Assembly (NCBI GenBank): GCA_001805965.1
Contig: MHHG01000055.1
Span: 3,680-67,679, forward strand
Reading direction: 5' to 3'
DNA length: 64,000 nucleotides
From: Omnitrophica WOR_2 bacterium RIFOXYA2_FULL_38_17
GTDB taxonomy: Bacteria > Omnitrophota > Gorgyraeia > Zapsychrales > Zapsychraceae
Shown here: positions 9,811 through 63,911 of the stretch, in pieces
Position numbering within the stretch: the first letter of the stretch is position 1
Layout of the letters: every line of letters begins with the position of its first letter
Translations under genes and position numbers: made by a program
The notes under the pieces: model-generated
Told to the model about the DNA's origin: nothing
Database searches by the model: none
What the model saw: the letters and a program-made list of their open reading frames with translations, nothing else

Positions 9811-10185
9811 TTATTTTGTAGTCTTCTTGCCACCGACAGATGGTTTTTTACCTTTTCTAACACGTGCATTTGTTTTTGTACGTTGCCCCCTTACCGGAAG
9901 GCCTTTTCGATGGCGCATTCCTCGATAAGTTCCGATATCAACATGCCTCTTCACATTCTGGCTGACATCCCTTCGAAGGTCACCTTCTATAATATAATTA
10001 TTCTGAATTATTGATGTTATGCGGGCTATTTCCTCGTCAGAAAGATCCTTCGCTCTTCTATTAACATCAATATTTGCTTCCTTTAAAATATCCAAGGTAT
10101 TAGCAGGACCAACCCCATAAATATATGGCAAAGCTGCCTCAATTCTCTTTTCCTTTGGAATATCAACACCTAAAATTCTTGGCAT
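9811..10185 (-). CDS. rpsM: 30S ribosomal protein S13
   Basis: MPRILGVDIPKEKRIEAALPYIYGVG... is a canonical S13 N-terminus. Confidence 0.95.
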   Translation of the reverse strand: MPRILGVDIPKEKRIEAALPYIYGVGPANTLDILKEANIDVNRRAKDLSDEEIARITSIIQNNYIIEGDLRRDVSQNVKRHVDIGTYRGMRHRKGLPVRGQRTKTNARVRKGKKPSVGGKKTTK

Positions 10186-10189
10186 AATC

Positions 10190-10303
10190 TTACCCTTGTC
10201 TTTGTTTATGTTTTGGATTTATGCAAATTACACGAACAACACCTTTTCTCCGAACAACTTTGCAATTGCTGCATACTCTTTTTATAGATGATTTTACTTT
10301 CAT
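10190..10303 (-). CDS. rpmJ: 50S ribosomal protein L36 (zinc-ribbon type)
   Basis: This gene is not in the ORF track. Manual translation gives [37 protein letters not shown] (37 aa) with a C-x2-C...C...H motif, located between infA and rpsM as expected. Confidence 0.85.
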
Positions 10304-10305
10304 GT

Positions 10306-10524
10306 TTACTTATTCCTGTATGTTATTCTTCCTCTTGTTAAATCATAGGGAGAAAGCTCTACTTTTACTTTGTCCCCTGGAAGAATCCTTATAAAATGTT
10401 TTCTGATTTTCCCTGAAATATGTGCTTGAACAATGTGCCCATTTTCTAACTCTACTCGAAACTTAGCATTTGGAAGGGCTTCTTTTACTATGCCTTCAAC
10501 TTCTATAAGATCTTCTTTAACCAT
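10306..10524 (-). CDS. infA: Translation initiation factor IF-1
   Basis: The 72-aa ORF ([32 protein letters not shown]...) is an S1-like OB fold. Confidence 0.95.
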
Positions 10525-10525
10525 G

Positions 10526-11284
10526 TTACCTCGTTAATATTTCAGGCTTTTCTTTTGTTACTACAATTGAATGCTCAAAATGCGCTGACGGCTTTCCATC
10601 TTTTGTTACAACTGTCCATCCGTCGTTTAAAATCTTCGTGCGCCAGTCTCCAATATTCACCATTGGCTCAATAGCTAATACCATCCCTGATTTCAAAACA
10701 GGACCATTATTTGGCTCGCCAAAATTAGGTATCTCAGGATCTTCATGCAACTGCTTACCAATGCCATGACCTACAAATTCTCTGACAACTGAATAATTGT
10801 TCCCTTCAACATATGATTGAATAGCATGTGAAACATCTGAAAGATGATTGTTCTCTTTTGCTTGTTCAATCCCCCTGTAAAGAGATTCCTTTGTTACATC
10901 AATCAATCTTTGGAACTCGGGGTCAATATTACCTATTCCTGCAGTAACAGCCATATCAGAATAATACCCTTTGTAAATAATCCCAACATCCAAACTAACT
11001 ATATCTCCATTTTCCAGCTTGCGTTTAGAAGGTATTCCATGAACAACTTCATCATTAATAGAAACGCAAACACAACTAGGAAAACCCCTATAGCCTTTGA
11101 ATGCGGGGACAACATCATATTCCTTTATTAGAATCTCTGCAAGTGCATCAATTTCTTGAGTTGAAATTCCAGTTTTTAAAGAGCATTTTAATTCTTTTAC
11201 AATAGCTGATAATCTTTTCCCAGCTTCCCTAAGAAGCACTAGTTCTTCGCCAGTCTTTATTCCGATCTTATTACCTTGATCCAT
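10526..11284 (-). CDS. map: Methionine aminopeptidase type I
   Basis: The 252-aa ORF has the conserved metal ligands and motifs of MetAP-I. Confidence 0.9.
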
Positions 11285-48444: not shown

Positions 48445-49860
48445 TTACAACTCAGAAGATACCTCAGGAGTGATAATAGTTGGCGTAATAAAGATCAACA
48501 AATCAGTTTTATCTACATCCTTAGATGTTTTGGTAAATAGCTTTCCCAATATCGGGATATCTCCTAAAAATGGCACCTTTTTCTTTACATCTACAGCTTT
48601 ATCCTTAACTAAACCGCCAATTACCAAAGTTTCTCCATCCTTTACCATTACTTTAGTAGAAGCTTGCTCAATGCTTAGTTTTGGAACTGCAGAACCACTT
48701 GCCGCATCTGTAACGTCACCTAAATTATCAGTTATACTTGGCTCAACATCAAGCGTAATAATCCCTGCAGCCAAGCTAACGTGCGGGGTAACTTTCAAAA
48801 CTATTCCTATCTTTTTATACTCCCAGCCTGATAACTGCCAACTTCCAGTTTCATCGTTAAAAAACTTCAATGGGTATGGGTGCTCCGTTCCCACATCAAT
48901 CCTTGCTTCATGATTATCCAACGTGACAATTCTAGGATTAGAAAGAATATTCGTATCAGTTCTTTCTGCTAACATTCTGAATACAGCTTGTAAATTAGCA
49001 AAACTAAGTGTTCCATTAGTAATTGCAGAAGCGGTTGATGTTACTCCGCCAGTATCTATATTGGGATTGATATATTTATTATCAATTACAGGAGGTGCGA
49101 ACGGAAATGTATGTGTTATGGAAGAGCCTGTTACACTGGCTTGCGTAGTCCATTCTATTCCTAGCTGTTCAGAATCATCTAAAACTGTCTCAATAATTTT
49201 ACTTTCAATTAAGACTTGTGGAGTAGTCGCATCCAAACCTTTTATAACCTTTGCGATTAAGACTAGCTTGCTTGCTGTATCAGTTACAATTAAAGTATTT
49301 GTTCTTTCATCAAAATTAACATTACCTCTTTCTGATTTCATTTTTTCAAGAGATTCAACGATCTCTGAAGCCCTGCCAAAATTAAGCATGAATATTTCTG
49401 TTTCTAAAGGCTCTTGTTCGGCAAGAAGCAATGAGTCCTCTCTTCTTTTCTTCATGTCTTCAATAGTAGTAACAACAATTATGTTGCCCTTTTGGTCATA
49501 CGCATATCCATATGTTTGCAAAATTACCTCAAGAGCCTGTTTCCAGGGAACATCCTTAAGCTGTATAGTTACAACGCCGATTACTTCAGGGCTCGTAACA
49601 ATATTTATACCGCTTTTAAAAGCAAGTATTTTCAAGACATTCCTGATATCGGCTTCTCGGAAATCCAAGCTTACGTCCCCTCCATCAGACATCATAACAT
49701 CATCTGCAGATTGAGAAGCTCCTTCAACTTCAGATCCAGCAACATTTTGTTTAGCAGGTATTTCTGATCCTTTTTGAGCAAAAACGCACTCAACTCCCAC
49801 AACGGAAATCATTATAAATATTCCTATGATTAGAAAAATCCCTATCTTTTTCCCAGACAT
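48445..49860 (-). CDS. pilQ: Type IV pilus secretin PilQ
   Basis: N-terminal signal/TM, N-domains and a C-terminal secretin domain (VPFLGDIPILGKLF). Confidence 0.85.
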   Translation of the reverse strand: MSGKKIGIFLIIGIFIMISVVGVECVFAQKGSEIPAKQNVAGSEVEGASQSADDVMMSDGGDVSLDFREADIRNVLKILAFKSGINIVTSPEVIGVVTIQLKDVPWKQALEVILQTYGYAYDQKGNIIVVTTIEDMKKRREDSLLLAEQEPLETEIFMLNFGRASEIVESLEKMKSERGNVNFDERTNTLIVTDTASKLVLIAKVIKGLDATTPQVLIESKIIETVLDDSEQLGIEWTTQASVTGSSITHTFPFAPPVIDNKYINPNIDTGGVTSTASAITNGTLSFANLQAVFRMLAERTDTNILSNPRIVTLDNHEARIDVGTEHPYPLKFFNDETGSWQLSGWEYKKIGIVLKVTPHVSLAAGIITLDVEPSITDNLGDVTDAASGSAVPKLSIEQASTKVMVKDGETLVIGGLVKDKAVDVKKKVPFLGDIPILGKLFTKTSKDVDKTDLLIFITPTIITPEVSSEL

Positions 49861-50232: not shown

Positions 50233-50835
50233 CTATTTTTTACCTTTTAACTCTTCATAAACAACAGCATCCAGTACAATCTCAACTGAATGTTTTTGCT
50301 CTCCCCTTGAAGATATAATGCCAAAAGAGCTGACTTTAAAAAATATGTCCCCGCGCTCAAGTTGGCTTAAAAATCTGCCAAAATCATGATAACCGCTTCT
50401 AGCCTTTATAAGTATAGGCAAACCATAATAACGCCTCTCATCATTCTCTAACAGGATTTTCTGATCTTGCACATCAGGCATGATCTGATCAATCTTAACT
50501 CCGTTATCATCAGCCATGCGAGAAATATTTTCCAGAATAAGAGGAACTTCCTCCTTGAATTTAAGCTTTGCATTTGATTTTGCAACATCCGCTCTTAATC
50601 TTTCAACTTGTACCTGATACTGTTTTGATCTTAAAATATCATCTTTAGCTTTGTTAATATCCTCGGAAAGCAAACGAATTTCCGGGCTTATCTTAGATAA
50701 AGAGGCAATCTGCGGCCTCATAAGAACAAAGTAATCTAAAAGGAAGACTGAAAATAATATGCCGCCCAAAATATAGTAGATAACTTTTTCATCTACACTT
50801 TCTATATAGGACGATATTTTGTTCTGCAATGTCAT
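50233..50835 (-). CDS. pilO: Type IV pilus assembly protein PilO-like
   Basis: Single N-terminal TM, coiled coil and C-terminal alpha/beta domain, in the position between pilN and pilP. Confidence 0.6.
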   Translation of the reverse strand: MTLQNKISSYIESVDEKVIYYILGGILFSVFLLDYFVLMRPQIASLSKISPEIRLLSEDINKAKDDILRSKQYQVQVERLRADVAKSNAKLKFKEEVPLILENISRMADDNGVKIDQIMPDVQDQKILLENDERRYYGLPILIKARSGYHDFGRFLSQLERGDIFFKVSSFGIISSRGEQKHSVEIVLDAVVYEELKGKK

Positions 50836-51428
50836 TATTTACCCACTCTAGACGTTATTAAAAAATCAGCAACATCTACCTTGTTAATCTTTCTCATTTG
50901 TATTGAACCTAACTCCAGATCCGTTAGGTCCGTTAAAAATTCTGCATCTTGTTTAAGATTTGCTGTAAATTTATGTACTCCTATCATCTCTTTATTCTGC
51001 CTGGAAATTGCACTACCCTCTACAAAAAAAGCATCTTCATTAAATGCTATCCTCCTCAACCAAACCCCCTTTGGAAGATTATCACTTAAAATATTCAGTT
51101 TCTGTGACCAAATAACCTTTTCCTCTTCCGTAAGTTTCTTTATTGCGCTTTGCTTGTTCTGAAGCATCCTAAGCTCACTAATAATAACATCAACTTTCTC
51201 TTTGTCAGGAACAATTCCTTCCCAAGATGCTTTTAATGTATTATGTTTTGCTAACTTAGAAACATTAATTGCAAGCAAAACAACATGCACAACAAATAGC
51301 AGTATAATCAGTCCTCCACCTAGCCCAATAACCACTTCCAAAGGCAGCTTAAATCCTCCCACGAAGAAATCCTTCTTCTTCTTTTTTCTTAAACGCATTG
51401 GAACTAAGTTTATATCAATTATATTCAT
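50835..51428 (-). CDS. pilN: Type IV pilus assembly protein PilN-like
   Basis: MNIIDINLVPMRLRKKKK then a TM helix, which is a PilN N-terminus. The start was placed at M9 of the ORF-track call. Confidence 0.6.
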   Translation of the reverse strand: MNIIDINLVPMRLRKKKKKDFFVGGFKLPLEVVIGLGGGLIILLFVVHVVLLAINVSKLAKHNTLKASWEGIVPDKEKVDVIISELRMLQNKQSAIKKLTEEEKVIWSQKLNILSDNLPKGVWLRRIAFNEDAFFVEGSAISRQNKEMIGVHKFTANLKQDAEFLTDLTDLELGSIQMRKINKVDVADFLITSRVGK

Positions 51429-52470
51429 ATAAAGCCAATCCAAAGGCAACACCTAAATTAAGGGCCTTTTTGTTAAGATCATCAACATCTATTCCTTTAG
51501 ACACTCCTAAAGCCTTAAGTGGATCCCACCTTTCAACTTGCATTTCTAAATTATCCCCTAAAACATCAACGATACCTTCTAATAAAGAGCCGCCCCCAGT
51601 TACTAATAATTTATCAACTTCTTTGCTTTTTTCCGTAGAAAAATAATCAATAGATAATCTTAATTCCTGGACAATATTCATAAGGGTCGATTCACAAGCA
51701 GCTTTTACTTCACTAACTCTTTTAGCTGGTTGACATTTTAATTTCTCAGCTTCTTCTAAACTAATGCCCAATGTATTGCTTATTCTCTTTGTAAAATCAG
51801 CACCTCCGACAAAAATATCTCGTGTAAATCTTGGTGATTTGTTAACAATGATAATAAACGTGCTAACAGACTCTCCTATATCCAACAATGCCACTGTTTG
51901 ATCTTTACCTTCATCTTCTTTTTCTAATGAAAAGTTCAAAGCATTGACCAATGCAGCTGGATTCAATCCAATAAAATCTGCCTGATATCCTAAGCTTGAA
52001 ATAAGCTGCATTCTCTGGTCAATCATCTCTTTCTTTGCAGCAGATGCCATAACAGCCATCTGCTTGCTCTTCTTATCACCATCCAGAATATAACAATCTG
52101 TATAAATTTGATCTTGCGAGAAAGGGAAATACTTATCAGCTTCTATAGAAAATGAGTTGCGCAAATCATCTATAAGCATTCTGGGCATATCTATATAACG
52201 TATCAGAGTCCCTTTTCCAAAAACAGCAGTATATATCGTATTTGGTGGATTCCTTAGTTGCGCGATTAATGTTTTTATTGCTTCGGCTATACCACTCTTT
52301 CTTGACGATTCAATTGCCCAGCTAACTAACTCATATTCATTATTCTCTTTCTTTATTTCAACTAACTTACAACTGTTTAAACCAATATCTATTCCAACAG
52401 CTGTACCCTTAGGCTTGTCAGGAAGAAATTTTTTTATTATGCCGAAATAATTATTTAGCAATGCATTCAT
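51415..52470 (-). CDS. pilM: Type IV pilus assembly ATPase-like protein PilM (actin fold)
   Basis: AVGIDIGLNSCKLVEI phosphate-1 motif and actin/FtsA-like fold. Confidence 0.85.
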   Translation of the reverse strand: MNALLNNYFGIIKKFLPDKPKGTAVGIDIGLNSCKLVEIKKENNEYELVSWAIESSRKSGIAEAIKTLIAQLRNPPNTIYTAVFGKGTLIRYIDMPRMLIDDLRNSFSIEADKYFPFSQDQIYTDCYILDGDKKSKQMAVMASAAKKEMIDQRMQLISSLGYQADFIGLNPAALVNALNFSLEKEDEGKDQTVALLDIGESVSTFIIIVNKSPRFTRDIFVGGADFTKRISNTLGISLEEAEKLKCQPAKRVSEVKAACESTLMNIVQELRLSIDYFSTEKSKEVDKLLVTGGGSLLEGIVDVLGDNLEMQVERWDPLKALGVSKGIDVDDLNKKALNLGVAFGLALYEYN

Positions 52471-52685: not shown

Positions 52686-53081
52686 TTATTGCTGACTTAA
52701 AACCCCACCAGTTGTAACTGTAAAATGTGTCGTTCCTGATGTTCCAAGAGTCATAGCATTTGCATCAAAGGTATAATAACCTGGAGCAAATGTACAGGCA
52801 TAAGTAAAACCTGATGTTGACTGACCACAATAAGCTGCATTTAGATAAGGTGGTGTTGCGCCGGTCAATGAAGCTTCATTTCCTGGATATACACCATTTG
52901 ATGATGTTTGAAACGTTTCTGCCGCTGTTGACATCGTTTTGAGCGTGCTCTGTGCTAGCGCATCATTTGCTGAGATCTTAGCTCTTAGCAAGTTTGGAAT
53001 AGCAATTGCTGCTAACAAAGCGATAATTGCGACTACGATCATAATTTCTACTAACGTAAAACCTTTTTGGCTCATTCTCAT
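52686..53081 (-). CDS. pilA: Type IVa major pilin (prepilin, class III signal peptide)
   Basis: MRMSQKG|FTLVEIMIVVAIIALLAAIAIPNL gives the G-1, F+1, E+5 prepilin peptidase/N-methylation motif. A C-terminal Cys pair suggests a D-region disulfide. GGAGG SD lies 6 nt upstream. Confidence 0.85.
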   Translation of the reverse strand: MRMSQKGFTLVEIMIVVAIIALLAAIAIPNLLRAKISANDALAQSTLKTMSTAAETFQTSSNGVYPGNEASLTGATPPYLNAAYCGQSTSGFTYACTFAPGYYTFDANAMTLGTSGTTHFTVTTGGVLSQQ

Positions 53082-53240: not shown

Positions 53241-53270
53241 ATTCTACCACCTCCTCTCTTTCCTTGTCAA
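53241..53270 (-). promoter_or_regulatory. Candidate sigma70 promoter for pilA (long 5' UTR ~150 nt)
   Basis: The minus strand reads TTGACA, an 18-nt spacer, then TAGAAT. Confidence 0.35.
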
Positions 53271-53605
53271 TTCATTTATATACTCTTGCTTTGGCTGCTT
53301 TCGCACCAAAACAAAACATGGCTGAACAAAGACAGATTTTACCCACTCAATAATACCAACAATGGTTTTTTCCAATATGCGCATTTTTATCACAAGCACC
53401 TCTCAAAAAAAAATCCCACCCCATTATAAGGAGCAGGACTATTAGAATCCCTTTGTGGCAACTGGCTGTCCTATTTTCTCTTAGGACCCTATAGCTTTGT
53501 GCCCCATCCTTACGAATGGTTTACCATTTACACAACCAACCCAAACTTTCAGTTCAAGTATAACATCAAAAAAAATTATTGTCAAAAAAGAGGCATTTTA
53601 CAAAC

Positions 53606-54628
53606 TTACTTGTTTTTTATTGCCTCAATTTTTTTTTGAAAATCATACACTTTCTTTATTAATACCAAGTGTTCATTCTTGATCGCAGCCAAATTTTCAG
53701 TTAATTGACGCTCTTCAGCTTCTCCACCATCTAAATTCAATTTACTGTCCTTCAATTTCTCTTTAGCAATAGAAAGTACATTGTCAAGATTATCCTTTTG
53801 TTCATTTAAAGCCGCTATTTCCTTTAATAGCTCTTCTTTGCGACTTTCTCTTTCATTACTGACATTAGCAATTTCTTTTTGTATTTTGTCTTCTTCTCCT
53901 AAAATAATCTTAAGCTCGTCTTCAACTATCAACAATTGCTGCTTCAAAAGACTTCTTTTTTTACCGATTTCTTCTACTTCAGATACTGGTCGCATATTAG
54001 TCTCTGTAACTTTGGACAATTGTCTTTGCAATCCTTCAATCTCGTTTTCGCTTCTTTCGATTTGTTCAAGCACTTGTTTCTTAATACTGTCTTCTGTGCC
54101 TTTACTTTTTTTCATATCAAAATTATCAATCTTCATTTGAATATCAGCAATATCTTTACTGACTTTATCGATTGATTGCAGAACTTCTTTTTCTTTAACT
54201 TGCTTTACATCTAATTTCTTCTCTAAAATCTGTTGCTCTCTAACAATCTTACTAACATCATCAGTTAAGCTATTCGCATTTTTCTCAAAGAACATTAGCT
54301 CCTGTTCTTCAGCATCCATATCATCAAGGCTCGCGTTCTGTACTTTCCACTTCATTTTATCTTCTTCAAGACGTATTAACTCTGTTTTTAATGTCTTGAT
54401 ATTCTCACGAAGCTTTTCATTTTCAGAAACAAGCCATATATTCTTTTGTGCAACTTCTTGGGCGCTGTTTTTCAAACTTAACAAACTATACTCAAGAACT
54501 TTTCTTGCTGATAAATTAGCTCTTCTCTCTGCATGACAAAAATCGGCATTAACTTGAATAAATATTACAGTTAAAAATAAAGTTTTTACAATTGTCGTTC
54601 TACAAACAATCTTAGTTTTTTTAAACAT
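53606..54628 (-). CDS. Secreted long coiled-coil protein of unknown function (pil-locus associated)
   Basis: The 340-aa ORF has an N-terminal signal-like hydrophobic segment, then about 300 aa of E/K/L/Q-rich heptad-like sequence. I recognise no catalytic motifs. Confidence 0.5.
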   Translation of the reverse strand: MFKKTKIVCRTTIVKTLFLTVIFIQVNADFCHAERRANLSARKVLEYSLLSLKNSAQEVAQKNIWLVSENEKLRENIKTLKTELIRLEEDKMKWKVQNASLDDMDAEEQELMFFEKNANSLTDDVSKIVREQQILEKKLDVKQVKEKEVLQSIDKVSKDIADIQMKIDNFDMKKSKGTEDSIKKQVLEQIERSENEIEGLQRQLSKVTETNMRPVSEVEEIGKKRSLLKQQLLIVEDELKIILGEEDKIQKEIANVSNERESRKEELLKEIAALNEQKDNLDNVLSIAKEKLKDSKLNLDGGEAEERQLTENLAAIKNEHLVLIKKVYDFQKKIEAIKNK

Positions 54629-54651: not shown

Positions 54652-55857
54652 TTAGACAATTTGTGTAATATTCAATATAGGCATAAATAAAGCAATAACA
54701 ATAAAACCAATCACTATACCAAGAACACCTATGATCAAAGGCTCAATAATACTGGTCAAACCTTCAACGGCTGCGTCAACTTGATCATCATAAAATTCAG
54801 CTATTTTTAAAAGCATTTTTTCCATCTGGCCCGATTTCTCGCCAATACCGATCATCCTAGTGACCATAGGCGGAAATACTTTACTTTTGCTTAATGGTGT
54901 TGCAATACTTTCACCTTCGCGTACACAATTTTTTACATCTTCGACAACATCTTCAAGGACAGTGTTTCCTATAGTCTTACCAACTATATCTAGAGATTCA
55001 AGAATCGGAACACCGCTTTGTATAAGGGTAGCCAGCGTTCGACTAAAACGGCTAATCGCAACTTTACAAAAAAGCTCGCCAAAAAGAGGCATGTTCAGAA
55101 CAGCCCCATCTATAACACGAGCGCCTTTTGCCGTTCTATACCATCTTCCGATAAGAAAAACTACAAAAACAAAAAAACCAACAATCCAAATCAAATAACT
55201 CTTGAGCCCTTCACTCACTCCAATTAGCATTTGAGTCATAGCCGGCAATTCCCTATCAAAAGAATCATAAATGCCCGCAAAAGTGGGAACAACCTTAACT
55301 AATAAAATAATCGTAATAATTGTCGCCATTGATACAATTACTGAAGGATATATCAATGCGGATTTGACTTTACGTTGCAGTTTAAGCGATTTCTCCATAT
55401 ATGTGGATATGCGGTCTAATACTTGACTTAAAACACCCCCAGTCTCTCCAACTCTTACCATGTTTACAAAAAGAGTGTCAAAAACACTAGGGTGTTTATT
55501 AAAAGCAGCAGAAAGGCTTGCTCCATGCTGAATATCATCATAAACATTTGTAAGAACCTTTTGAAACAGCGGATGAGAAACCTGGTCCTTCAAAGCATCA
55601 ATACCCTGAAGTATTGGTATGCCTGCATCAACCATTGTAGCTAATTGTCTTGTAAAAATGACGATCTCATCAGGCTTTACTTTTTTTGATTGAAAAGAAG
55701 AGCCAGTAATCTTGGAATCCTTTACTTCAACAACCGAAATAATAATAAGCTTCTTTTTCCTTAAAGCTTCAATGACTGATTCTTTATTATCCGCAGCAAT
55801 CTTTCCGGTAACATTCCCTGATTCTGCATTCTTTGCAACATATTTAAAAGTTGCCAT
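54652..55857 (-). CDS. pilC: Type IV pilus inner-membrane platform protein PilC (GspF family)
   Basis: The 401-aa ORF has two T2SSF repeats and three TM segments. Confidence 0.9.
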   Translation of the reverse strand: MATFKYVAKNAESGNVTGKIAADNKESVIEALRKKKLIIISVVEVKDSKITGSSFQSKKVKPDEIVIFTRQLATMVDAGIPILQGIDALKDQVSHPLFQKVLTNVYDDIQHGASLSAAFNKHPSVFDTLFVNMVRVGETGGVLSQVLDRISTYMEKSLKLQRKVKSALIYPSVIVSMATIITIILLVKVVPTFAGIYDSFDRELPAMTQMLIGVSEGLKSYLIWIVGFFVFVVFLIGRWYRTAKGARVIDGAVLNMPLFGELFCKVAISRFSRTLATLIQSGVPILESLDIVGKTIGNTVLEDVVEDVKNCVREGESIATPLSKSKVFPPMVTRMIGIGEKSGQMEKMLLKIAEFYDDQVDAAVEGLTSIIEPLIIGVLGIVIGFIVIALFMPILNITQIV

Positions 55858-55940: not shown

Positions 55941-56399
55941 TTAATTTCCACCATAAAGATTATTCAAAGCATGATCAATTTCCATTCTAGTGGAAATAAA
56001 AGGTACTATTTCACAACTGGTATCTTGCTTTAATTCCTGAAGAACCGAAAAATCCAAAGGATTCGACATAGCAATACTTAAAATATTACCAACACAATCT
56101 AAAGGGACAACACAATACTTAAAAGCTATCTGCCTTGGGATAATATTCAAGACTTCCTGCTTTATATCATACTGATCAATTGCAATATAAGGAAGCTTAC
56201 ACTGGGCAGACAAAGCAGCAACAACGTCTTTCTCGCTTACAAATCCCAGAGTTGTTAGGATCTCCCCGATGAATCTCTTATCTTTCTTTTGAATATTCAA
56301 AGCCCGACTAAGCTGCTTCCTAACAACCATCTTTCGATTAAGCAGAATCTCTCCTAAGCGACCTTTTTTATTGACAAATATTCCAGAATCAGCAACCAT
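55941..56399 (-). CDS. Standalone T2SSE_N / MshEN-like domain protein (PilB N-terminal domain only, 152 aa)
   Basis: Aligns to the N-domains of both downstream PilB paralogues (LPYIAIDQYDI...IPRQIAFKYCVVPL...LSIAMSNPLD). Tandem motifs RLGEILLNRKMVVRKQLSRALNIQ and FIGEILTTLGFVSEKDVVAALSAQ are present. Confidence 0.6.
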   Translation of the reverse strand: MVADSGIFVNKKGRLGEILLNRKMVVRKQLSRALNIQKKDKRFIGEILTTLGFVSEKDVVAALSAQCKLPYIAIDQYDIKQEVLNIIPRQIAFKYCVVPLDCVGNILSIAMSNPLDFSVLQELKQDTSCEIVPFISTRMEIDHALNNLYGGN

Positions 56400-56596: not shown

Positions 56597-58303
56597 TTAT
56601 TCATCCATAGCGACTCTTAAAACCTCTTCAAGAGTTATTAACCCAGAAACACATTTCTCGATAGCATCCTCCCAAATAGTCACCATTCCGTTAACCTCAC
56701 ACGCAAACCGTTTTATCTCATCGGATGAGCATCCCCTTAATAGCATCTCCTTGATCTCATCAGTTACCTCTAATACTTCCATCAAAGCCATTCTCCCAGA
56801 ATAGCCTGTACCATGACAAGCCTCACAACCTTTTCCATGATAGAAAACTGTATTGGGCTTGAATTTATAAGTCATCTTATCCAATACTTTCTTCGATATC
56901 TCAACTTTTTCTTTACAGCGTGTACAAATTTTCCTACATAGTCTTTGTGCATTTACCAGCACAAGGCTCGATGCAACCAAAAACGGCTCAACTCCCATAT
57001 CAACCAATCTTGTCAAAGTGCCGGCAGCATCATTTGTATGAAGGGTAGAAAAGACCAACTGCCCTGTTAATGATGCTTTCACTGCTATGTCAGCTGTTTC
57101 ATTATCACGAATCTCACCAACCATTACAATATCTGGGCTCTGTCGCAATATTGCCCTTAACCCCTCAGCAAAAGTCAATCCTATTTCAGGCCTAGCCTGA
57201 ATCTGTGTCAATCCCTCGATCAAATACTCAACCGGGTCCTCGACAGTAATGATGTTCTTATCCACTGTATTGAGCTCATTAATGATTGAGTATAAAGTTG
57301 TCGATTTGCCACTGCCCGTAGGGCCAGTGACCAAGAACATACCAAACGGTTTAACGATGCCATTCTTTAAAACAGCCAGAGACTTCTCAGAAATGCCTAA
57401 GCCATCAAGCCCAACAGTCAAATTACTTTTATCCAGAACACGCATGACAATTTTCTGCCCAAATGTTGTAGGCAATAAAGAAACGCGGAAATCAATTTCT
57501 TTTCCAGCGACTTTCATCTTAAAACGTCCGTCTTGAGGGACATAATTTGAAGTTATATCCAACCTGGACATTATCTTGATTCTTACGATAACGGCATTCT
57601 GGTTTTCCTTAGGCAAATTCAGGATATCTCTCAAAATACCATCTATTCTATAACGAACTCTGACGCCATCTTCCGCTGGTTCAATATGAATATCAGAAGC
57701 TTTCTGCCTTATTGCTTCTTTGACAATAAGATTGACCATTCGGATAACAGGGGCTTTCTCTCCGTCATCTGCAGGTCCACTGCTTCCATCTTCTTCTTGA
57801 TCCATGACTATTTCGAAATCATCTACCTGAATGTCCTGAGTAATATCAGTAACACTCACGCTTTCCGGAACGCCATAATAATTATCAATTGCCTTAATGA
57901 TCTCCGTATTTGTACTCATAACCACATCGATATCTTTGCCTGTGATACTTTTTAGGTCATCAGCGATAAAAACATCTAGCGGGTCTGCAAGCGCCACCGT
58001 AAGGGTGTTCTCAAGCAGTGAAAGAGGGATTATTTTATACTGCCTTGCTACCCGCTCTGGCACGATCTCTTGCAAATAAGGGTCGATCTTATATTTGCTT
58101 AAATTAATAAACGGGATATTTAGCTCTCTTACAAGAAGCATCAAAAGGTCGTCCTCCGCTATCAGCCCTTGTTCTATCAAAGCTTTATCAAGACCAATAT
58201 TCTTTCTCTTTTGCAATACAATAGCAGCATCAAGATCTTTTTTGCTGATCTGCTGAGTCTCAATAAGTGTATTCAAAATTTTATCTTTTAATGTCTTTGC
58301 CAC
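56597..58303 (-). CDS. pilB: Type IV pilus assembly ATPase PilB/GspE family, paralogue 1
   Basis: The 568-aa ORF has an N-terminal T2SSE_N domain, Walker A GPTGSGKST, Asp/His boxes and a tetracysteine CRKIC..C..C..CEACHGTG. It starts at a GTG with a 1-nt overlap onto the upstream stop. Confidence 0.9.
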   Translation of the reverse strand: MAKTLKDKILNTLIETQQISKKDLDAAIVLQKRKNIGLDKALIEQGLIAEDDLLMLLVRELNIPFINLSKYKIDPYLQEIVPERVARQYKIIPLSLLENTLTVALADPLDVFIADDLKSITGKDIDVVMSTNTEIIKAIDNYYGVPESVSVTDITQDIQVDDFEIVMDQEEDGSSGPADDGEKAPVIRMVNLIVKEAIRQKASDIHIEPAEDGVRVRYRIDGILRDILNLPKENQNAVIVRIKIMSRLDITSNYVPQDGRFKMKVAGKEIDFRVSLLPTTFGQKIVMRVLDKSNLTVGLDGLGISEKSLAVLKNGIVKPFGMFLVTGPTGSGKSTTLYSIINELNTVDKNIITVEDPVEYLIEGLTQIQARPEIGLTFAEGLRAILRQSPDIVMVGEIRDNETADIAVKASLTGQLVFSTLHTNDAAGTLTRLVDMGVEPFLVASSLVLVNAQRLCRKICTRCKEKVEISKKVLDKMTYKFKPNTVFYHGKGCEACHGTGYSGRMALMEVLEVTDEIKEMLLRGCSSDEIKRFACEVNGMVTIWEDAIEKCVSGLITLEEVLRVAMDE

Positions 58304-60072
58304 TACTTCTTCTTTTCCTCATCAGGTGATGTTAATCTCAAAACCTCTTCTATTGTTGTTAACCCATCTACTGCTTTCACCAAGCCATCTTCTCTCATAG
58401 TCCGCATACCTTCTTGACGTGCAACTTGTTTTATCTTTACTTCGCCTACCCGCGCCAAGACAGCCTCTTTCACTTTTTGGCTGAATACAAGGATTTCAGT
58501 GATACCAACCCGCCCCTTATAGCCAGTATTAAAACATTGCTTACATCCTTTTGGCCTCATAACTTCTATATTCTGTTTAGGATATAATTTATCAAGCCCA
58601 ACTTTTGAAGCTATCTCCGGAGTAACTATATAAGGCTCACAACATTTCGGGCAGACCTTTCTTAATAGCCTTTGGGCAATGATAGCCAACACAGAAGAAC
58701 ATATTAAAAATGGCTCAATACCCATATTCATCATACGGACTATTGAACCCGCAGCTGTTGTAGTGTGAAGAGAACTCAAAACAAGGTGTCCAGTCAAAGC
58801 AGCCTTAACCGCAATATCTAATGTTTCTTTGTCGCGGATCTCTCCTATCATGATAATATCCGGGTCTTGCCTGAGAATTGATCTTAGACTTGAAGAAAAA
58901 GTTAAGCCCATCTTTGCCTTTATATTAACTTGATTGACCCCTTTCATCTGGTACTCTACAGGGTCCTCAACCGTAACAATATTTTTTTCTGGAGAATCTA
59001 CATACTTTAGAATTGAATAAAGCGTTGTCGTCTTACCGCTTCCAGTGGGACCACAAGTTAAAATCAAGCCATGCGGCTTTACAGCGCAGTCCTTTAAGCG
59101 CTGCAAAGCAGTTGCTTCAAACCCTAAATTTTCAACATCAAGCACTGTTCCCTGCTGGTCCAAGACTCTCAACACAATTTTTTCGCCAACAGCAGTAGGC
59201 AAAACATTAACGCGAAAGTCAACCTCTCTGTCACCTGAAATTATCGTCTTAAACCTTCCATCTTGAGGCAACCTGTGTTCTGAAATATCTAAATTTGAAA
59301 TGACCTTTATTCTTGAAACCAATGGAAAATGCAACACTTTTGTCATTCGATCAATCTCTCGAATGACCCCATCAATCCTGTACCTGATGCGGACTGCTTT
59401 TTCTAATGGCTCTATGAACACATCGCTAGCTTTCGCAAACACTGCTTGCTGAATTATCGTGTCTGTTAACTTAATAATCGGCGCCTCGTCAGATATTGCC
59501 TCAACAGATGACTGCTCATCACTGTGTCCATCTTTAATTAATTCAAGGTCTTCAGTATCTCTAAAATCTTGAATGATCTCATCAAAGGTCTCATTATTTT
59601 TTTCCTGCTCTGGACTTTCCTGATCCTGCTCATCCTCATGCTTCAAATAATATTTCTCAATAGCTTTATGAATATCTGCAAACCTGCATATAATAGGAAT
59701 GATCATATAGCCTGTAAGAGCCTTAACATTATCTATTATAAATATGTTCAACGGATCCGCCATCGCGAGGGTCAGCTGATCTCCCAAGAGAGAAACAGGT
59801 ATAATTTGATATTTTAGTGCAATATCTTTTGGAATAGTTTGAATTACATCTGGCGAGATATTAAAACTAGCGATCTTAATTAAGGGAAGCTCAAGGCTTT
59901 CACTCAACACTTGGGTCAACTGGTCTTGACTCACAAAATTCATATCAACAAGTATCTTACTTAATTCTCCGCCTATTTTCTTTTGCTCAATTAACGCTTG
60001 CTCTAGCTCATTGGCGGTAATAAGTTCATCTCGAATAAGAATTTCTTTTAAGCGGTCTTTAAAAGATGCCAT
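58303..60072 (-). CDS. pilB: Type IV pilus assembly ATPase PilB/GspE family, paralogue 2
   Basis: The 589-aa ORF has an N-terminal T2SSE_N domain with RLKEILIRDELITANELEQALIEQ, an acidic linker, Walker A GPTGSGKTT and a tetracysteine CPKCC...CKQCFNTG. Confidence 0.9.
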   Translation of the reverse strand: MASFKDRLKEILIRDELITANELEQALIEQKKIGGELSKILVDMNFVSQDQLTQVLSESLELPLIKIASFNISPDVIQTIPKDIALKYQIIPVSLLGDQLTLAMADPLNIFIIDNVKALTGYMIIPIICRFADIHKAIEKYYLKHEDEQDQESPEQEKNNETFDEIIQDFRDTEDLELIKDGHSDEQSSVEAISDEAPIIKLTDTIIQQAVFAKASDVFIEPLEKAVRIRYRIDGVIREIDRMTKVLHFPLVSRIKVISNLDISEHRLPQDGRFKTIISGDREVDFRVNVLPTAVGEKIVLRVLDQQGTVLDVENLGFEATALQRLKDCAVKPHGLILTCGPTGSGKTTTLYSILKYVDSPEKNIVTVEDPVEYQMKGVNQVNIKAKMGLTFSSSLRSILRQDPDIIMIGEIRDKETLDIAVKAALTGHLVLSSLHTTTAAGSIVRMMNMGIEPFLICSSVLAIIAQRLLRKVCPKCCEPYIVTPEIASKVGLDKLYPKQNIEVMRPKGCKQCFNTGYKGRVGITEILVFSQKVKEAVLARVGEVKIKQVARQEGMRTMREDGLVKAVDGLTTIEEVLRLTSPDEEKKK

Positions 60073-60521
60073 TATTTTTGTTTATAGTATTTTTCAATGG
60101 ATTGTTTAATATCAGTAGTAGTGCTTACAAAGACCTGAACAATACATCCTGTCATAAGTTCAATATCTTCTGAAGCTTTTAGATTCAACGGGTCAGACAT
60201 TGCTATTGTTAAACTTTTACCTATCTTATCAATCGGAATAAGACAAAACTGCCTGCACACTTTTTCGGGGATCGCATTTATAACTTCATCATCAATTTCA
60301 TAATTCAGTAAGGGCAAATAAGGAAAGCCATACTGACATGTTATTGCCTGTGCAATATCTTTCTCTGTAGCAAAATTCAACTCAACAAGAACTTCACCTA
60401 TCAATCCACCATGCTTTTCCCTGTATTCCAGAGCCTCTTCTATTTGGGCATGATTTATAACTCCTCTTTCGATAAGAAGTTCTCCCAGTTTTTTATGTGT
60501 ATCTCTATTGAATTGTTTCAT
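60072..60521 (-). CDS. Standalone T2SSE_N / MshEN-like domain protein (149 aa)
   Basis: KLGELLIERGVINHAQIEEALEYR and LIGEVLVELNFATEKDIAQAITCQ tandem motifs, then PYLPLLNYEID...IPEKVCRQFCLIPI...LTIAMSDPLN matching PilB N-domains. ATGA overlap with pilB-2. Confidence 0.6.
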   Translation of the reverse strand: MKQFNRDTHKKLGELLIERGVINHAQIEEALEYREKHGGLIGEVLVELNFATEKDIAQAITCQYGFPYLPLLNYEIDDEVINAIPEKVCRQFCLIPIDKIGKSLTIAMSDPLNLKASEDIELMTGCIVQVFVSTTTDIKQSIEKYYKQK

Positions 60522-60700: not shown

Positions 60701-61069
60701 TTATCCGGTCAATCTTTTAATGCTGGAAAGCAGTTCCTCAGGATTGTAAGGCTTCATTAAATATTCATCAGCGCCCGCTTCTTTCCCCCAGAACTTGTCG
60801 CTCTCCGAAGTTTTAGCGGTTAAAAGTATAACCGGAATATGTGCTGTTTCAAGGCCATCTTTTATCATACGACAAACCTTATATCCGTTTGGAGCGGGCA
60901 TCATAACATCCAAAATTACCAGGTCTGGATGATATTCTTTGGTTAAACTTAAAGCCTCTTCGCCATTGGTTCCAGTGATTATTTCATATCCGTTCGCTTT
61001 TAAACGCAAACTTATCAGTTTAACAATCTCAGGCTCATCATCAATAATTAATATCTTTTTTCCCGACAT
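60701..61069 (-). CDS. Single-domain CheY-like response regulator (receiver only)
   Basis: ILIIDDEPEI...DLVILDVMMP...LLTAK receiver signature (phospho-acceptor Asp in LDVMMP). 122 aa, no output domain. Confidence 0.85.
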   Translation of the reverse strand: MSGKKILIIDDEPEIVKLISLRLKANGYEIITGTNGEEALSLTKEYHPDLVILDVMMPAPNGYKVCRMIKDGLETAHIPVILLTAKTSESDKFWGKEAGADEYLMKPYNPEELLSSIKRLTG

Positions 61070-61146: not shown

Positions 61147-61521
61147 TCATTTTTCCTTTAAAATATGTTCAATAATATCTATCCGGCTAACAATTCCAAC
61201 AACCTTTTTTTCCTTTATTACAGGCACTCTCTTTATATTCTTTTTAACCAGCAACCTACTGACATCTTCAACCAAATCATCCTCACTAATACTAATAACA
61301 TCCTTCGAATAAAACTCCTTAACGAGAGCATCCTTTGACCCAAGAAAATCATATGCAACTAAAAAATCCTTTTCAGTAACTACTCCGACAGCCTCCAGAT
61401 TATCATTAACAACTATTAGACCGCTTATATTATTTGACAAAAGAAGCCGCATCCCTTCTTCAATCTTAGCCTCTGGCTTTATAGTTACTACGTTAGTGGT
61501 CATAATATCCTTTGCTTGCAT
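61147..61521 (-). CDS. CBS-pair domain protein
   Basis: The 124-aa ORF has two CBS motifs (DIMTTNVVTIKPEAKIEEG... and VPVIKEKKVVGIVSRIDII). Confidence 0.8.
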   Translation of the reverse strand: MQAKDIMTTNVVTIKPEAKIEEGMRLLLSNNISGLIVVNDNLEAVGVVTEKDFLVAYDFLGSKDALVKEFYSKDVISISEDDLVEDVSRLLVKKNIKRVPVIKEKKVVGIVSRIDIIEHILKEK

Positions 61522-61577: not shown

Positions 61578-63911
61578 TTAGGTCAATCTTTCAATTAAAT
61601 CTATTACAACATTGATGTTGCCAGACTTTTCTATTATTGGGATTTCACCAAGTTCACCACATTCTTCCTTAACCTCACTTAAACGTTTATCTGTAAGAAC
61701 TATTATCGGGATCGCTGCGTACTGAGAATTCTGTTTTAATCTTCCCAAAACCTCATATCCGTTCATATTTGGCATGACAATATCAAGCAATATTAAATCT
61801 GTTTTTTTTGTTTTTAAATAATCCAGCGCCTCTTCACCATCAAAAACCTGTTCTGTAATAATGCCGTAGCGGCCCAATCTTGTTGAAAGCAATCTTCCGA
61901 TCTGCGGATGATCATCAACAATCAATACTTTTTTCTTTTTTTCGCATTCTTCTAAAGCCCTTATTGCTAATTCATTCTTATTCCGACCATCTTTTGGATG
62001 GAAAGCCAATCCAAACTTTACTTTTATCCCCAAGTCATCTTTCATCATGGCAATTCTCTCACGCAAAGCGCCCTTTATTTTCTCTAATAAGACCATCCCG
62101 CCTTTTTTATCTGTATCAGCAAGGGCAATATGAATTGTATCTTTATCATATAAGATATATTTATCTGTTGTCCTTGAAAGCGATCTTGACAATATTTCAA
62201 AAGCAATATTTATGATTTTATTAGCAAATGCTTCTCCATACTTGGTCATGACCATATCAATGCCCATAAAACGAGCAACAATAAAAACAGAATCCTTATT
62301 CTTTATTTTTGTCTCTGAAAATATCCAATCAACATCATGATCAAATTTTTGCTTTAATTTCAATTTGCTTGGAAGAGTAAAAAAGAAAGTTGCACCCTTA
62401 CCTGTCTCGCTCTCTGCCCAGATTTGCCCGTCATGAAGGTCAATTAAAGATTTGCTTATAGTCAAGCCTAAGCCCGTACCTTTTATTCCCGGGCCATGTA
62501 TTCTTCCAAATTGGGTAAATTTATCAAAAAGCTTTGGGATATTCTCCTTTTCAATCCCCAAACCCGTATCTGAAATCCTAAACAGGCATCCTCCATCCTG
62601 CTCATTGATCTCAATCTCTATTTCGCCACCTTCAGGTGTAAATTTATGAGCATTATTCAATAAATTTGTAACGACCTGTATTATTTTATCTTCATCAAGA
62701 AATATAAACATTTCCTTTTCTGGGAATATTGCTCTTATCTTTTGCTGCTTTGTATCTAAAACCTTTCTATATTCATCCGTCAATTTATTTATTATTGCTT
62801 TTAGGTCAACAATGGTCTTTCTAAGAGTGATCTCTCCGGATTCTATTTTAGAAACATCTAATAGATCATTCACAATTGTTTGTAACCTGTGAAGATTGTC
62901 CTTTGAAGCATTTAAAAGCTCTTTTTGCTGTTCATTAATTCCGCCAACAACGCCATCTAAAATAAGGTTTATGCACTCAGTTGATATCGCCAGCGGAGTC
63001 CTTAACTCATGGGAAACAGTGGAAACAAAATCAGATTTCAATTGATCTAATTTTTTTAGTTCCAAATTCTTTCTTTCAAGATTCTTATACAGATTCTTAA
63101 TTGATTCGTTAGTTTTTTGTAGCCCCCAGGATTGTTGTTCCAGCTTATCTCTAGCATTATCTAAATCTTTTTCAGCACTTTTTTTTGCTGTAATATCACT
63201 AAATGATTCGATACCGCCAATAATATGGCCCTCATCATTTTTTAAGATGTCAGAATTCTTAAGAATAGTTATTCTTTCACCATTTTTTCTCTTAATAGAA
63301 CACTCGGTCTCAACAATCGGCTTCTCTACATCATTACTATAAAGCCCGCAGTAAGACTCACAGGGATATTCAGCGAATATATCGCATTTTTTACCAATAA
63401 CCTCTTGGGCGGTATATCCTGTAAGCTCTTCGGCCTTTTTATTCCAGCCAGTTACAACTTTGTTTTCATCAACAGTAAATACAGCGCTCGGAACAACTCT
63501 AAAAATGCGCTCCAAATCCTTATTTGCTTTAATTACAGCTTCCTCAGCATGCTTATACACTGTTATGTCGCTCATTAAATGAATTGAGCCTAATAAATCT
63601 TTATTATCATCAAAAAGAGGTGCCGTTCGGATAAAGAACCATTTATTAAAAATAGGCTCCCAATGCTCCTTTTGTTCATATTTTTTTGAGTCCTTTAGAA
63701 CACAGTATGGACAATCAGATATAGGCTGGTTCTTAGAATGTATGACCTCATAACATTTCTTGTTCAATAAAGCACTTTCATCCTTGCCAATAAACTTTAA
63801 AAAAGCCTTGTTCACTTTCTTTATTCCATTCTCTAGATCAAGAATAAAGATGAAATCTTCTAAAACATCAAAAGCTGGAGACCAAAACCGATTATAATCA
63901 AGATTTTTCAT
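61578..63911 (-). CDS. Hybrid sensor histidine kinase: two PAS domains, HisKA-HATPase, degenerate GGDEF-like domain, C-terminal receiver
   Basis: H-box VSHELRTPL; G-boxes ISDTGLGI and GTGLGLTI. The inter-domain segment IDMVMTKYGEAFANKII...RTTDKYILYDKDTIHIALADTD aligns to GGDEF, with GGDEF replaced by DKDTI and RxxD five residues upstream. C-terminal VLIVDDHP...LLDIVMP receiver. Confidence 0.8.
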   Translation of the reverse strand: MKNLDYNRFWSPAFDVLEDFIFILDLENGIKKVNKAFLKFIGKDESALLNKKCYEVIHSKNQPISDCPYCVLKDSKKYEQKEHWEPIFNKWFFIRTAPLFDDNKDLLGSIHLMSDITVYKHAEEAVIKANKDLERIFRVVPSAVFTVDENKVVTGWNKKAEELTGYTAQEVIGKKCDIFAEYPCESYCGLYSNDVEKPIVETECSIKRKNGERITILKNSDILKNDEGHIIGGIESFSDITAKKSAEKDLDNARDKLEQQSWGLQKTNESIKNLYKNLERKNLELKKLDQLKSDFVSTVSHELRTPLAISTECINLILDGVVGGINEQQKELLNASKDNLHRLQTIVNDLLDVSKIESGEITLRKTIVDLKAIINKLTDEYRKVLDTKQQKIRAIFPEKEMFIFLDEDKIIQVVTNLLNNAHKFTPEGGEIEIEINEQDGGCLFRISDTGLGIEKENIPKLFDKFTQFGRIHGPGIKGTGLGLTISKSLIDLHDGQIWAESETGKGATFFFTLPSKLKLKQKFDHDVDWIFSETKIKNKDSVFIVARFMGIDMVMTKYGEAFANKIINIAFEILSRSLSRTTDKYILYDKDTIHIALADTDKKGGMVLLEKIKGALRERIAMMKDDLGIKVKFGLAFHPKDGRNKNELAIRALEECEKKKKVLIVDDHPQIGRLLSTRLGRYGIITEQVFDGEEALDYLKTKKTDLILLDIVMPNMNGYEVLGRLKQNSQYAAIPIIVLTDKRLSEVKEECGELGEIPIIEKSGNINVVIDLIERLT

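Follow-up and report, generated by a model that had tools for sequence, protein, structure and literature searches.

A free-standing MshEN protein encoded beside pilB in Omnitrophota as a candidate c-di-GMP-sensing partner of the type IV pilus extension motor

Why would a genome that encodes a complete type IV pilus assembly ATPase, with an N-terminal MshEN domain of its own, also encode a domain of this kind as a separate small protein immediately upstream? The question is raised by a 64,000-nucleotide stretch of DNA from Omnitrophica WOR_2 bacterium RIFOXYA2_FULL_38_17 (assembly GCA_001805965.1, contig MHHG01000055.1, positions 3,680 to 67,679 of the forward strand; hereafter the window), in which a 149-residue protein that we call MshEN-a is encoded directly before the motor gene pilB-a. 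We consider it slightly better than an even bet that MshEN-a is a detached subunit by which the type IV pilus extension motor of Omnitrophota senses cyclic di-GMP (c-di-GMP). This reading draws on intact motifs in the free-standing proteins set against degenerate ones in the motors, on gene linkage, on rare gene fusions, on the c-di-GMP context of the cluster, and on a pair of residues shared with a nanomolar binder; from these we infer ligand binding by MshEN-a, a physical contact between it and PilB-a, and the sign of any effect on the motor.

A PilB N-domain encoded by itself

The gene and its parts are as follows.
60072..60521, minus strand: MshEN-a, free-standing MshEN/GSPII domain protein of 149 amino acids, ATG start (open reading frame, Pfam, NCBIfam, AlphaFold2/Foldseek)
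60420..60491, minus strand: putative c-di-GMP motif 1, residues 11-34, KLGELLIERGVINHAQIEEALEYR (gap-free alignment to MshE R9-Q32)
60405..60419, minus strand: spacer EKHGG, residues 35-39 (5 residues, equal to the MshE spacer)
60333..60404, minus strand: putative c-di-GMP motif 2, residues 40-63, LIGEVLVELNFATEKDIAQAITCQ (aligns to MshE R38-Q61)
60078..60332, minus strand: MshEN_C (T2SSE_N1-like) alpha/beta subdomain, residues 64-148 (Pfam, predicted strands and helices, invariant columns)

A first-pass annotation of this DNA had described a free-standing MshEN-like protein of 149 residues at 60072..60521, and we find just that: an open reading frame with an ATG start that is matched by Pfam, NCBIfam and phmmer and carries no ATPase part. 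Pfam PF05157 (MshEN) aligns to residues 64-148 with 69.5 bits (cutoff 23.1, E=2.5e-19), NCBIfam NF053729 ('c-di-GMP_motif', a 53-residue site) aligns to residues 11-61 with 58.7 bits (cutoff 38, E=3.7e-16), and phmmer recovers the MshE structure 5HTL at E=3.8e-17 as well as PilF and PilB N-domains down to E=9e-42; as profile and sequence matches, these lie far beyond chance. There is no T2SSE match, and the PilB model TIGR02538 gives 81 bits against a cutoff of 675, over profile positions 1-138 only, so that MshEN-a is not a PilB and corresponds instead to a PilB N-domain alone. A Pfam scan finds no EAL, GGDEF or PilZ domain in the protein.

The expectation that the protein would adopt the MshEN fold is borne out by an AlphaFold2 model built from 33 family sequences, with a mean predicted local distance difference test score of 88.8. 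Helices at residues 12-18, 24-37, 41-47 and 53-64 precede a beta-beta-alpha-beta-alpha unit, which together give a predicted N-terminal four-helix bundle and an alpha/beta T2SSE_N1 subdomain, as in MshEN. The best Foldseek match in the PDB is 5HTL, MshE with c-di-GMP (template modelling (TM) scores 0.80/0.85, root-mean-square deviation 2.3 Å, 139 columns), followed by the GSPII domains of PilF (GSPII-B/C, 0.73-0.79), the Xanthomonas citri PilB N-domain and XpsE-N.

MshEN-a belongs to a well-conserved Omnitrophota family whose members are 65-93% identical. A search of 5.8 billion proteins returns 1782 matches, the best 120 of which are all 147-162 residues long, 67-93% identical and from Omnitrophica/Omnitrophota wherever named, and tblastn confirms relatives in 539 species genomes, scanned as one genome per species. 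The best 80 of these 539 genomes comprise 47 Omnitrophota/Omnitrophica, one Ca. Zapsychrus (an Omnitrophota genus), 30 labelled 'uncultured Planctomycetales' and two unclassified. The loci in these 30 'uncultured Planctomycetales bacterium' records (L004, L007, L014, L015 and 26 others) are indistinguishable from those of named Omnitrophota, and the label probably reflects taxonomy that was assigned coarsely or wrongly. Mean column identity across the family is 73%, with 45 invariant positions that include the signature QYGFPYLPLxNYEID, which lies in MshEN_C, and much of the rest of that subdomain. The family also has conserved cysteines (in MshEN-a numbering, C62 in 99/121, C89 in 121/121, C93 in 115/121 and C126 in 119/121), at positions that are mostly non-Cys in P0129, P0133 and P0143.

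Relative to the closest ortholog (L003), MshEN-a differs at 43 codons synonymously and at 10 non-synonymously. Family conservation and this synonymous excess establish that MshEN-a is a functional gene and not a fragment of pilB. The resemblance to PilB profile positions 1-138 is what a frameshift, an assembly error or a decaying pseudogene might leave behind, and we give that explanation practically no credence: it is refuted by conservation, with length (147-153 residues) and C-terminal end held constant over more than 120 protein clusters, relatives in the 539 species genomes from many assemblies, the 43 to 10 synonymous excess, and a downstream PilB-a that is full-length and has an MshEN domain of its own.

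Linkage and fusion to pilB-a

Immediately downstream of MshEN-a, the window reads as follows.
60070..60074, minus strand: TAATG stop/start junction of MshEN-a and pilB-a (TAA 60074..60072, ATG 60072..60070)
58303..60072, minus strand: PilB-a, type IV pilus assembly ATPase of 589 amino acids (T2SSE 463 bits plus MshEN; TIGR02538 623 bits)
56597..58303, minus strand: PilB-b, second PilB paralog, 568 amino acids (Pfam/NCBIfam; NF053729 26.1 bits against a cutoff of 38)
55941..56399, minus strand: MshEN-b, second free-standing MshEN, 152 amino acids (Pfam 62.3 bits; NF053729 54.7 bits)
54652..55857, minus strand: PilC platform protein (T2SSF 222 bits)

This arrangement is general. PilB-a lies directly downstream of MshEN-a in 70 of the 71 related loci that have enough downstream sequence, and the order MshEN-a, PilB-a, PilB-b, PilC is kept, with PilB-b in place in 60/61 loci and PilC in 58/61; MshEN-b is present after pilB-b in 32/61. 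The genes upstream of MshEN-a vary, and in L001 they include mreBCD, a PBP2-type transpeptidase gene and an FtsW/RodA-family gene. The linkage bears on the idea that MshEN-a is a c-di-GMP receptor with an output other than the motor, in polysaccharide, another pathway or buffering, and that its association with pilB reflects co-regulation. Subfamily MshEN domains are fused to PilZ (P0160, P0154) and to a DnaA-type ATPase (P0167), and Myxococcus xanthus PilB is reported (PMC5544727) to signal to exopolysaccharide production, both of which would fit such a role; however, adjacency to pilB-a in 70/71 loci despite varying upstream genes, and fusion specifically to PilB-a, make it improbable.

The two genes had been said to overlap as ATGA, implying translational coupling with the motor ATPase. 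The overlap proves to be of a different form, since the minus strand reads ...AAATAATGGCA and the junction is TAATG, with one shared nucleotide (60072). The claim of coupling is partly supported: among 70 loci the junction is TAATG, with its 1-nucleotide overlap, in 20, a gap of 2-8 nucleotides in 24 and a gap of 20-272 nucleotides in 22. Co-translation of MshEN-a and PilB-a is plausible and not obligatory. Neither the MshEN-a nor the pilB-a start has an obvious Shine-Dalgarno sequence, so that coupling cannot be argued from ribosome-binding sites, and a promoter scan around MshEN-a is uninformative (28 sites, where AT-rich DNA would be expected to give 19.2 ± 4.4).

Among 1.84 billion cluster representatives searched there are many MshEN relatives of 145-180 residues, together with fusions in which the partner is PilZ or a DnaA-type ATPase. 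Close relatives of the subfamily, whose QYGFPYLPL-type signature is identical or nearly so, are P0160, P0154, P0167 and P0123, where the fusion partners are PilZ, PilZ plus DUF7305, a DnaA-type AAA+ ATPase and an extra MshEN_N half-domain. Three rare clusters, P0129, P0271 and P0272 (754-767 residues; P0272 is named Omnitrophota), join an MshEN-a-like domain (45% identity) through a low-complexity linker to a complete ATPase of the PilB-a type (45% identity across 583 residues). In the two loci examined, those of P0129 and P0272, the fused gene is followed by PilB-b and PilC and there is no separate MshEN-a; fused genes, for products of 754-765 residues, lie at L163 6001..8298 and L164 6001..8265. 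These fusion loci argue for a single complex in which MshEN-a acts on PilB-a or together with it. The nearest relatives of the fused proteins are unfused PilB-a proteins of about 574 residues, and the fusion looks derived, as judged from these nearest relatives; the opposite course, in which Omnitrophota split an ancestral fused (MshEN)2-PilB, is in that form not supported, given these relatives and the rarity of the fused forms.

The fusions also speak to whether MshEN-a might be a c-di-GMP-controlled decoy, which mimics the PilB N-domain and competes for its docking site on PilM/PilC until c-di-GMP changes its conformation. MshEN-a is paralogous to PilB N-domains (29-31% identity); the equivalent GspE N1 domain has GspL as its binding partner and the X. 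citri PilB N-domain has PilZ, with 2BH1, 4PHT and 7LKM among the fold matches, and small PilB inhibitors are known (CpiA and the phage proteins Aqs1 and Tip; PMC11656802). A tether to PilB-a in natural fusions whose synteny is otherwise the same is nonetheless hard to square with a competitor of that motor, and translation together with the motor, at close to 1:1, is more what one expects of a subunit than of a regulator made in excess or conditionally. We regard a decoy as quite unlikely.

c-di-GMP motifs in the free-standing domains and in the motors

The c-di-GMP site of MshEN consists of two 24-residue motifs and a 5-residue spacer, with six key positions in each motif (PMC5013675). Two motifs at this spacing had been claimed for MshEN-a, and both, with the spacer, align as a 53-residue site without gaps to Vibrio cholerae MshE 9-61, exactly five residues (EKHGG) standing between KLGELLIERGVINHAQIEEALEYR and LIGEVLVELNFATEKDIAQAITCQ; a longer alignment, to MshE 7-66 and to the Thermus thermophilus PilF domains, is likewise gap-free through both motifs. 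The key positions are occupied as follows.
Position 1, consensus R: K11 in motif 1, L40 in motif 2
Position 2, consensus L: L12 in motif 1, I41 in motif 2
Position 3, consensus G: G13 in motif 1, G42 in motif 2
Position 17, consensus L: I27 in motif 1, I56 in motif 2
Position 21, consensus L: L31 in motif 1, I60 in motif 2
Position 24, consensus Q: R34 in motif 1, Q63 in motif 2

The motifs had been called near-consensus, a description that must be tempered, with K/L and not R at position 1, R34 at position 24 of motif 1 and several Leu replaced by Ile. The statement that both conserved glycines are present stands for position 3 (G13, G42) and for the turn of motif 1, where G20 matches MshE G18; at the turn of motif 2 (MshE G47) there is N49, although the model still predicts a helix-turn-helix there. 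With three factual corrections in all, the first-pass observation is partly confirmed and its interpretation supported. Outside the motifs, D110 aligns with MshE D108, an MshEN_C residue reported as a possible guanine contact.

The position-1 residues have a direct precedent. T. thermophilus PilF has three GSPII domains, of which GSPII-A is non-binding, GSPII-B binds c-di-GMP at 6 nM and GSPII-C at about 0.5 µM. The K11/L40 pair of MshEN-a consists of the same residues as K167/L196 of GSPII-B, the domain with the dissociation constant of 6 nM, whose authors widen the consensus to (R/K/L)LG and take hydrophobic replacements as predictors of high affinity (PMC11731258); K11/L40 fit the extended position-1 consensus R/K/L, and this match counts towards the detached-sensor reading. 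R34 and N49 are the weak points of the motifs. Arg at position 24 is permitted by the relaxed search motif of the authors of PMC5013675, and in PilF GSPII-A the non-Gln residues at the position-24 sites of both motifs (H33, R62) needed to be changed to Gln before binding returned (PMC12002112).

When the four MshEN domains at each locus are aligned with MshE, a division appears between the free-standing proteins and the motors.
MshEN-a: position-3 Gly, 80/81 in motif 1 and 81/81 in motif 2; position-24 Gln, 72/81 and 81/81
MshEN-b: position-3 Gly, 34/34 in motif 1 and 34/34 in motif 2; position-24 Gln, 34/34 and 34/34
PilB-a, own domain: position-3 Gly, 0/72 in motif 1 (K/Q/L) and 4/72 in motif 2 (S in 63); position-24 Gln, 69/72 in motif 1, replaced by G/S in motif 2
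PilB-b, own domain: position-3 Gly, 0/65 in motif 1 (I/L/V) and 2/65 in motif 2 (D/E); position-24 Gln, 58/65 in motif 1, E in 64/65 in motif 2

The motif Gly and Gln residues are therefore nearly invariant in MshEN-a across 80 homologous loci, which answers the doubt whether they would be conserved at all. At other positions of the family, motif 2 position 1 is Leu in 79/81, motif 1 position 1 is mostly Q/H and the motif 2 turn is K/N/R in 74/81. In the window, PilB-a has the motifs RLK... and ELS...S, with both motif glycines gone, PilB-b has the degenerate KIL... and GLD...E, and MshEN-b has the intact RLG...Q and FIG...Q. MshEN-b is 35% identical to MshEN-a and, at 39-52% identity among relatives, far less conserved; the ATPase parts of the tandem PilB-a and PilB-b (56597..60072) are 49% identical to each other, and the pair is kept throughout the family.

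Failure of XpsE to bind has been attributed to G11V, G40L and Q61V (PMC5013675), and in PilF GSPII-A the Gly to Ala change alone costs 10-30 fold in affinity (PMC12002112). The changes in PilB-a and PilB-b are of the XpsE kind and harsher than the Gly to Ala of GSPII-A. Both motors have lost ligand-contacting residues of their own MshEN domains, 'degenerate' being meant here as residue-level reasoning.

We then compared 80 metagenomic PilB relatives, scoring four signature residues in each. At least three of the four are kept in 50 of 55 PilBs without a separate upstream MshEN gene and in 0 of 12 with a separate upstream MshEN-containing gene (Fisher p=1e-9). Seven of the 12 partners are plain free-standing MshEN proteins, all with upstream sequence, which carries the architecture over to PilBs only 46-52% identical to PilB-a, and the four that were read (L087, L089, L092, L098) have intact motifs. 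A further kind of partner is a TPR-MshEN protein of 305-347 residues encoded upstream of a pilB whose product is about 45% identical (L091 1961..3004, L093 2066..3004, L101 2536..3465, L102 852..1769), with an overlap of 4 nucleotides at the pilB start in L091, L093 and L102; these proteins keep the 'PYLPL' signature and have a degenerate c-di-GMP motif.

Several of these observations weigh against a sensor, and some would suit a protein that never meets c-di-GMP, a structural adaptor whose MshEN fold docks on the motor or on PilM/PilC, much as an additional N-terminal domain attached non-covalently, and which binds no nucleotide, in this like GSPII-A and XpsE-N. At the residue level, R34 stands in the window copy where the family has Gln, at the motif position where GSPII-A needed H33 and R62 replaced by Gln; the motif 2 turn Gly is K/N throughout the family; and motif 1 position 1, mostly Q/H, falls outside both the relaxed and the extended motifs. 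By analogy with GSPII-A, which with a perfect consensus remained non-binding until inter-subdomain contacts were removed (PMC12002112), an intact motif need not bind, and c-di-GMP binding by MshEN-a is accordingly not certain from sequence alone. The strongest conservation in MshEN-a, in its C-terminal subdomain and the linker QYGFPYLPL, also suggests a protein-protein interface. On the side of the motors, the NF053729 model gives PilB-a 48.5 bits, more than its cutoff of 38, which is why 'degenerate' is used above in a residue-level sense. The 12 partner cases represent only about three independent lineages, which makes for a small effective sample; in the TPR-MshEN lineage, moreover, the partner motif is degenerate too. 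The spacing to pilB-a is not always tight, as the 22/70 loci with the longest gaps attest. The adaptor is the strongest of the four alternatives, ahead of the decoy, the non-pilus output and the artefact in that order, and we nevertheless hold it to be unlikely: residues that serve only the ligand (the position-3 Gly and position-24 Gln) are nearly invariant in MshEN-a, yet lost in the adjacent PilB domains; the K/L variant is that of a proven high-affinity binder, GSPII-B; and the cluster has other c-di-GMP elements.

c-di-GMP elements in the pilus cluster

The remainder of the cluster, and the genes on its other side, are as follows.
61578..63911, minus strand: PAS histidine kinase carrying a C-terminal receiver and a degenerate GGDEF-like region
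61147..61521, minus strand: CBS-pair protein
60701..61069, minus strand: single-domain receiver protein
53606..54628, minus strand: 340-residue protein without a Pfam match, between pilC and the riboswitch
53412..53585, minus strand: promoter-like site, c-di-GMP-I class riboswitch aptamer at 53453..53534 and terminator-like hairpin, all preceding the pilin gene
52686..53081, minus strand: type IV pilin gene with N-methylation motif (PF07963)
50233..52470, minus strand: PilM, PilN and PilO
48445..49860, minus strand: secretin

The aptamer is matched best by RF03167, the GGC variant in Rfam (61.5 bits, E=4e-12, with a gathering score of 59), and is flanked upstream by a strong promoter-like site, TTGACA-17-TATACT, and downstream by an 11-bp hairpin with a T-run. 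A second promoter-like site lies at 53241..53270, between the terminator and the pilin start. RF01051, the canonical c-di-GMP-I model, hits the same position in L001 (16394-16476, 58 bits) and also hits L042, L019 and L005, there where the loci end. One Omnitrophota genome, that of L078, encodes a REC-GGDEF cyclase (9919..10815, plus strand, 148.5 bits) whose GGEEF is intact; its gene overlaps the pilB-b stop by one base and stands where pilC would normally come. A motif search finds no intact diguanylate cyclase, EAL or HD-GYP in the window, where the kinase at 61578..63911 has a weak GGDEF-like region (24.8 bits, YDKDT in the place of GGDEF), and the same search over about 0.9 Mb of related loci finds only one intact cyclase, that of L078. 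The riboswitch and the L078 cyclase indicate that these organisms make or at least sense c-di-GMP and that the pilus cluster is one target.

The kinase, CBS-pair and receiver trio was considered as part of the conserved module and rejected, being common only to the closest relative, L003. The position of the 340-residue protein is taken in related loci by a similar-sized gene whose product is only 22-26% identical. A third T2SSE-family ATPase (4722..5777, minus strand, 351 residues), without MshEN and of the size of a PilT-type retraction ATPase, lies distant from the pilus cluster.

If MshEN-a is the sensor that we favour, c-di-GMP would bind its four-helix bundle (residues ~11-63) through the two tandem 24-residue motifs, with the backbone amides of G13/E14 and G42/E43 contacting the guanines, the hydrophobic clusters L12/I56/I60 and I41/I27/L31 lining the site, K11 and L40 stacking, and Q63 reaching the ribose-phosphate. 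The loaded protein would then act via its conserved C-terminal subdomain, with PilB-a as its target and PilB-b or the PilM/PilC platform as possible further ones, so that pilus extension is permitted or tuned. The MshEN domains of the motors have lost their ligand-contacting residues in this lineage, and sensing therefore appears to have passed to a second polypeptide that shares their transcript, often with overlapping stop and start. MshEN-b is possibly the counterpart for PilB-b. Whether this holds phylum-wide, with sensing taken off the motor and placed on one or two paralogous MshEN subunits that serve tandem PilBs with 'blind' MshEN domains, we would call an evenly balanced question.

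MshEN-a shares its domain, fold, motifs and 5-residue spacer with V. cholerae MshE (5HTL), M. xanthus PilB, Clostridium perfringens PilB2 and Chloracidobacterium PilB, and like their N-domains it is tied to a type IV pilus assembly ATPase. Unlike these, it is a separate 149-residue chain, has K/L and not R/R at position 1, lacks the motif 2 turn Gly and, in the window, ends motif 1 in R. PilF and other (MshEN)n-T2SSE proteins likewise have more than one MshEN per motor, with binding and non-binding copies sharing the work, a layout that the rare Omnitrophota fusions recreate as (MshEN)2-T2SSE; in PilF, however, all domains are in one chain, whereas in Omnitrophota the binding-type copy is a separate gene, there are two tandem PilBs, and the second free-standing copy, MshEN-b, follows pilB-b in about half of loci. 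Sensing in trans for a PilB with a non-binding domain of its own is also found in Xanthomonas and Pseudomonas, where FimX (a degenerate EAL protein) and PilZ act on PilB; MshEN-a is a paralog of the PilB N-domain and not an EAL, GGDEF or PilZ protein, and the likeness proposed is purely functional.

MshEN proteins that lack an ATPase were known before, since Pseudomonas aeruginosa PA3740 (MshEN_N with a diverged T2SSE_N1) is listed as a c-di-GMP binder in PMC5013675 (Supplementary Tables 3 and 4). PA3740 is set apart by its description, a highly diverged C-terminal subdomain and a distribution in beta- and gamma-proteobacteria, from MshEN-a with its canonical, very conserved subdomain and fixed synteny with pilB-a, and we found no report in the literature of a pilB linkage for PA3740. 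The domain-architecture table of PMC5013675 has no entry for a plain stand-alone MshEN, a 2024 review of PilB cofactors names none that is free-standing (PMC11656802), and the literature searched, including MshEN papers since 2019, contains no description of a free-standing MshEN that works with PilB, nor anything on c-di-GMP signalling or pilus control in Omnitrophota.

How the signal passes from c-di-GMP at the flexible PilB N-domain to the motor is poorly understood (PMC11656802), and a sensing domain supplied as a separate, small and highly conserved protein would make binding, docking and motor activation separable biochemically, with the rare fusions as built-in controls. Hundreds of MshEN-a-type proteins are now annotated 'hypothetical' or 'PilB', and the locus opens a first tangible way into c-di-GMP signalling and the control of pili in Omnitrophota, an uncultivated phylum. 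If the detached-sensor reading is true, free-standing MshEN would be a new class of PilB cofactor and, together with the pilin-gene riboswitch, would form a two-level c-di-GMP circuit in which RNA governs subunit supply and protein governs the motor.

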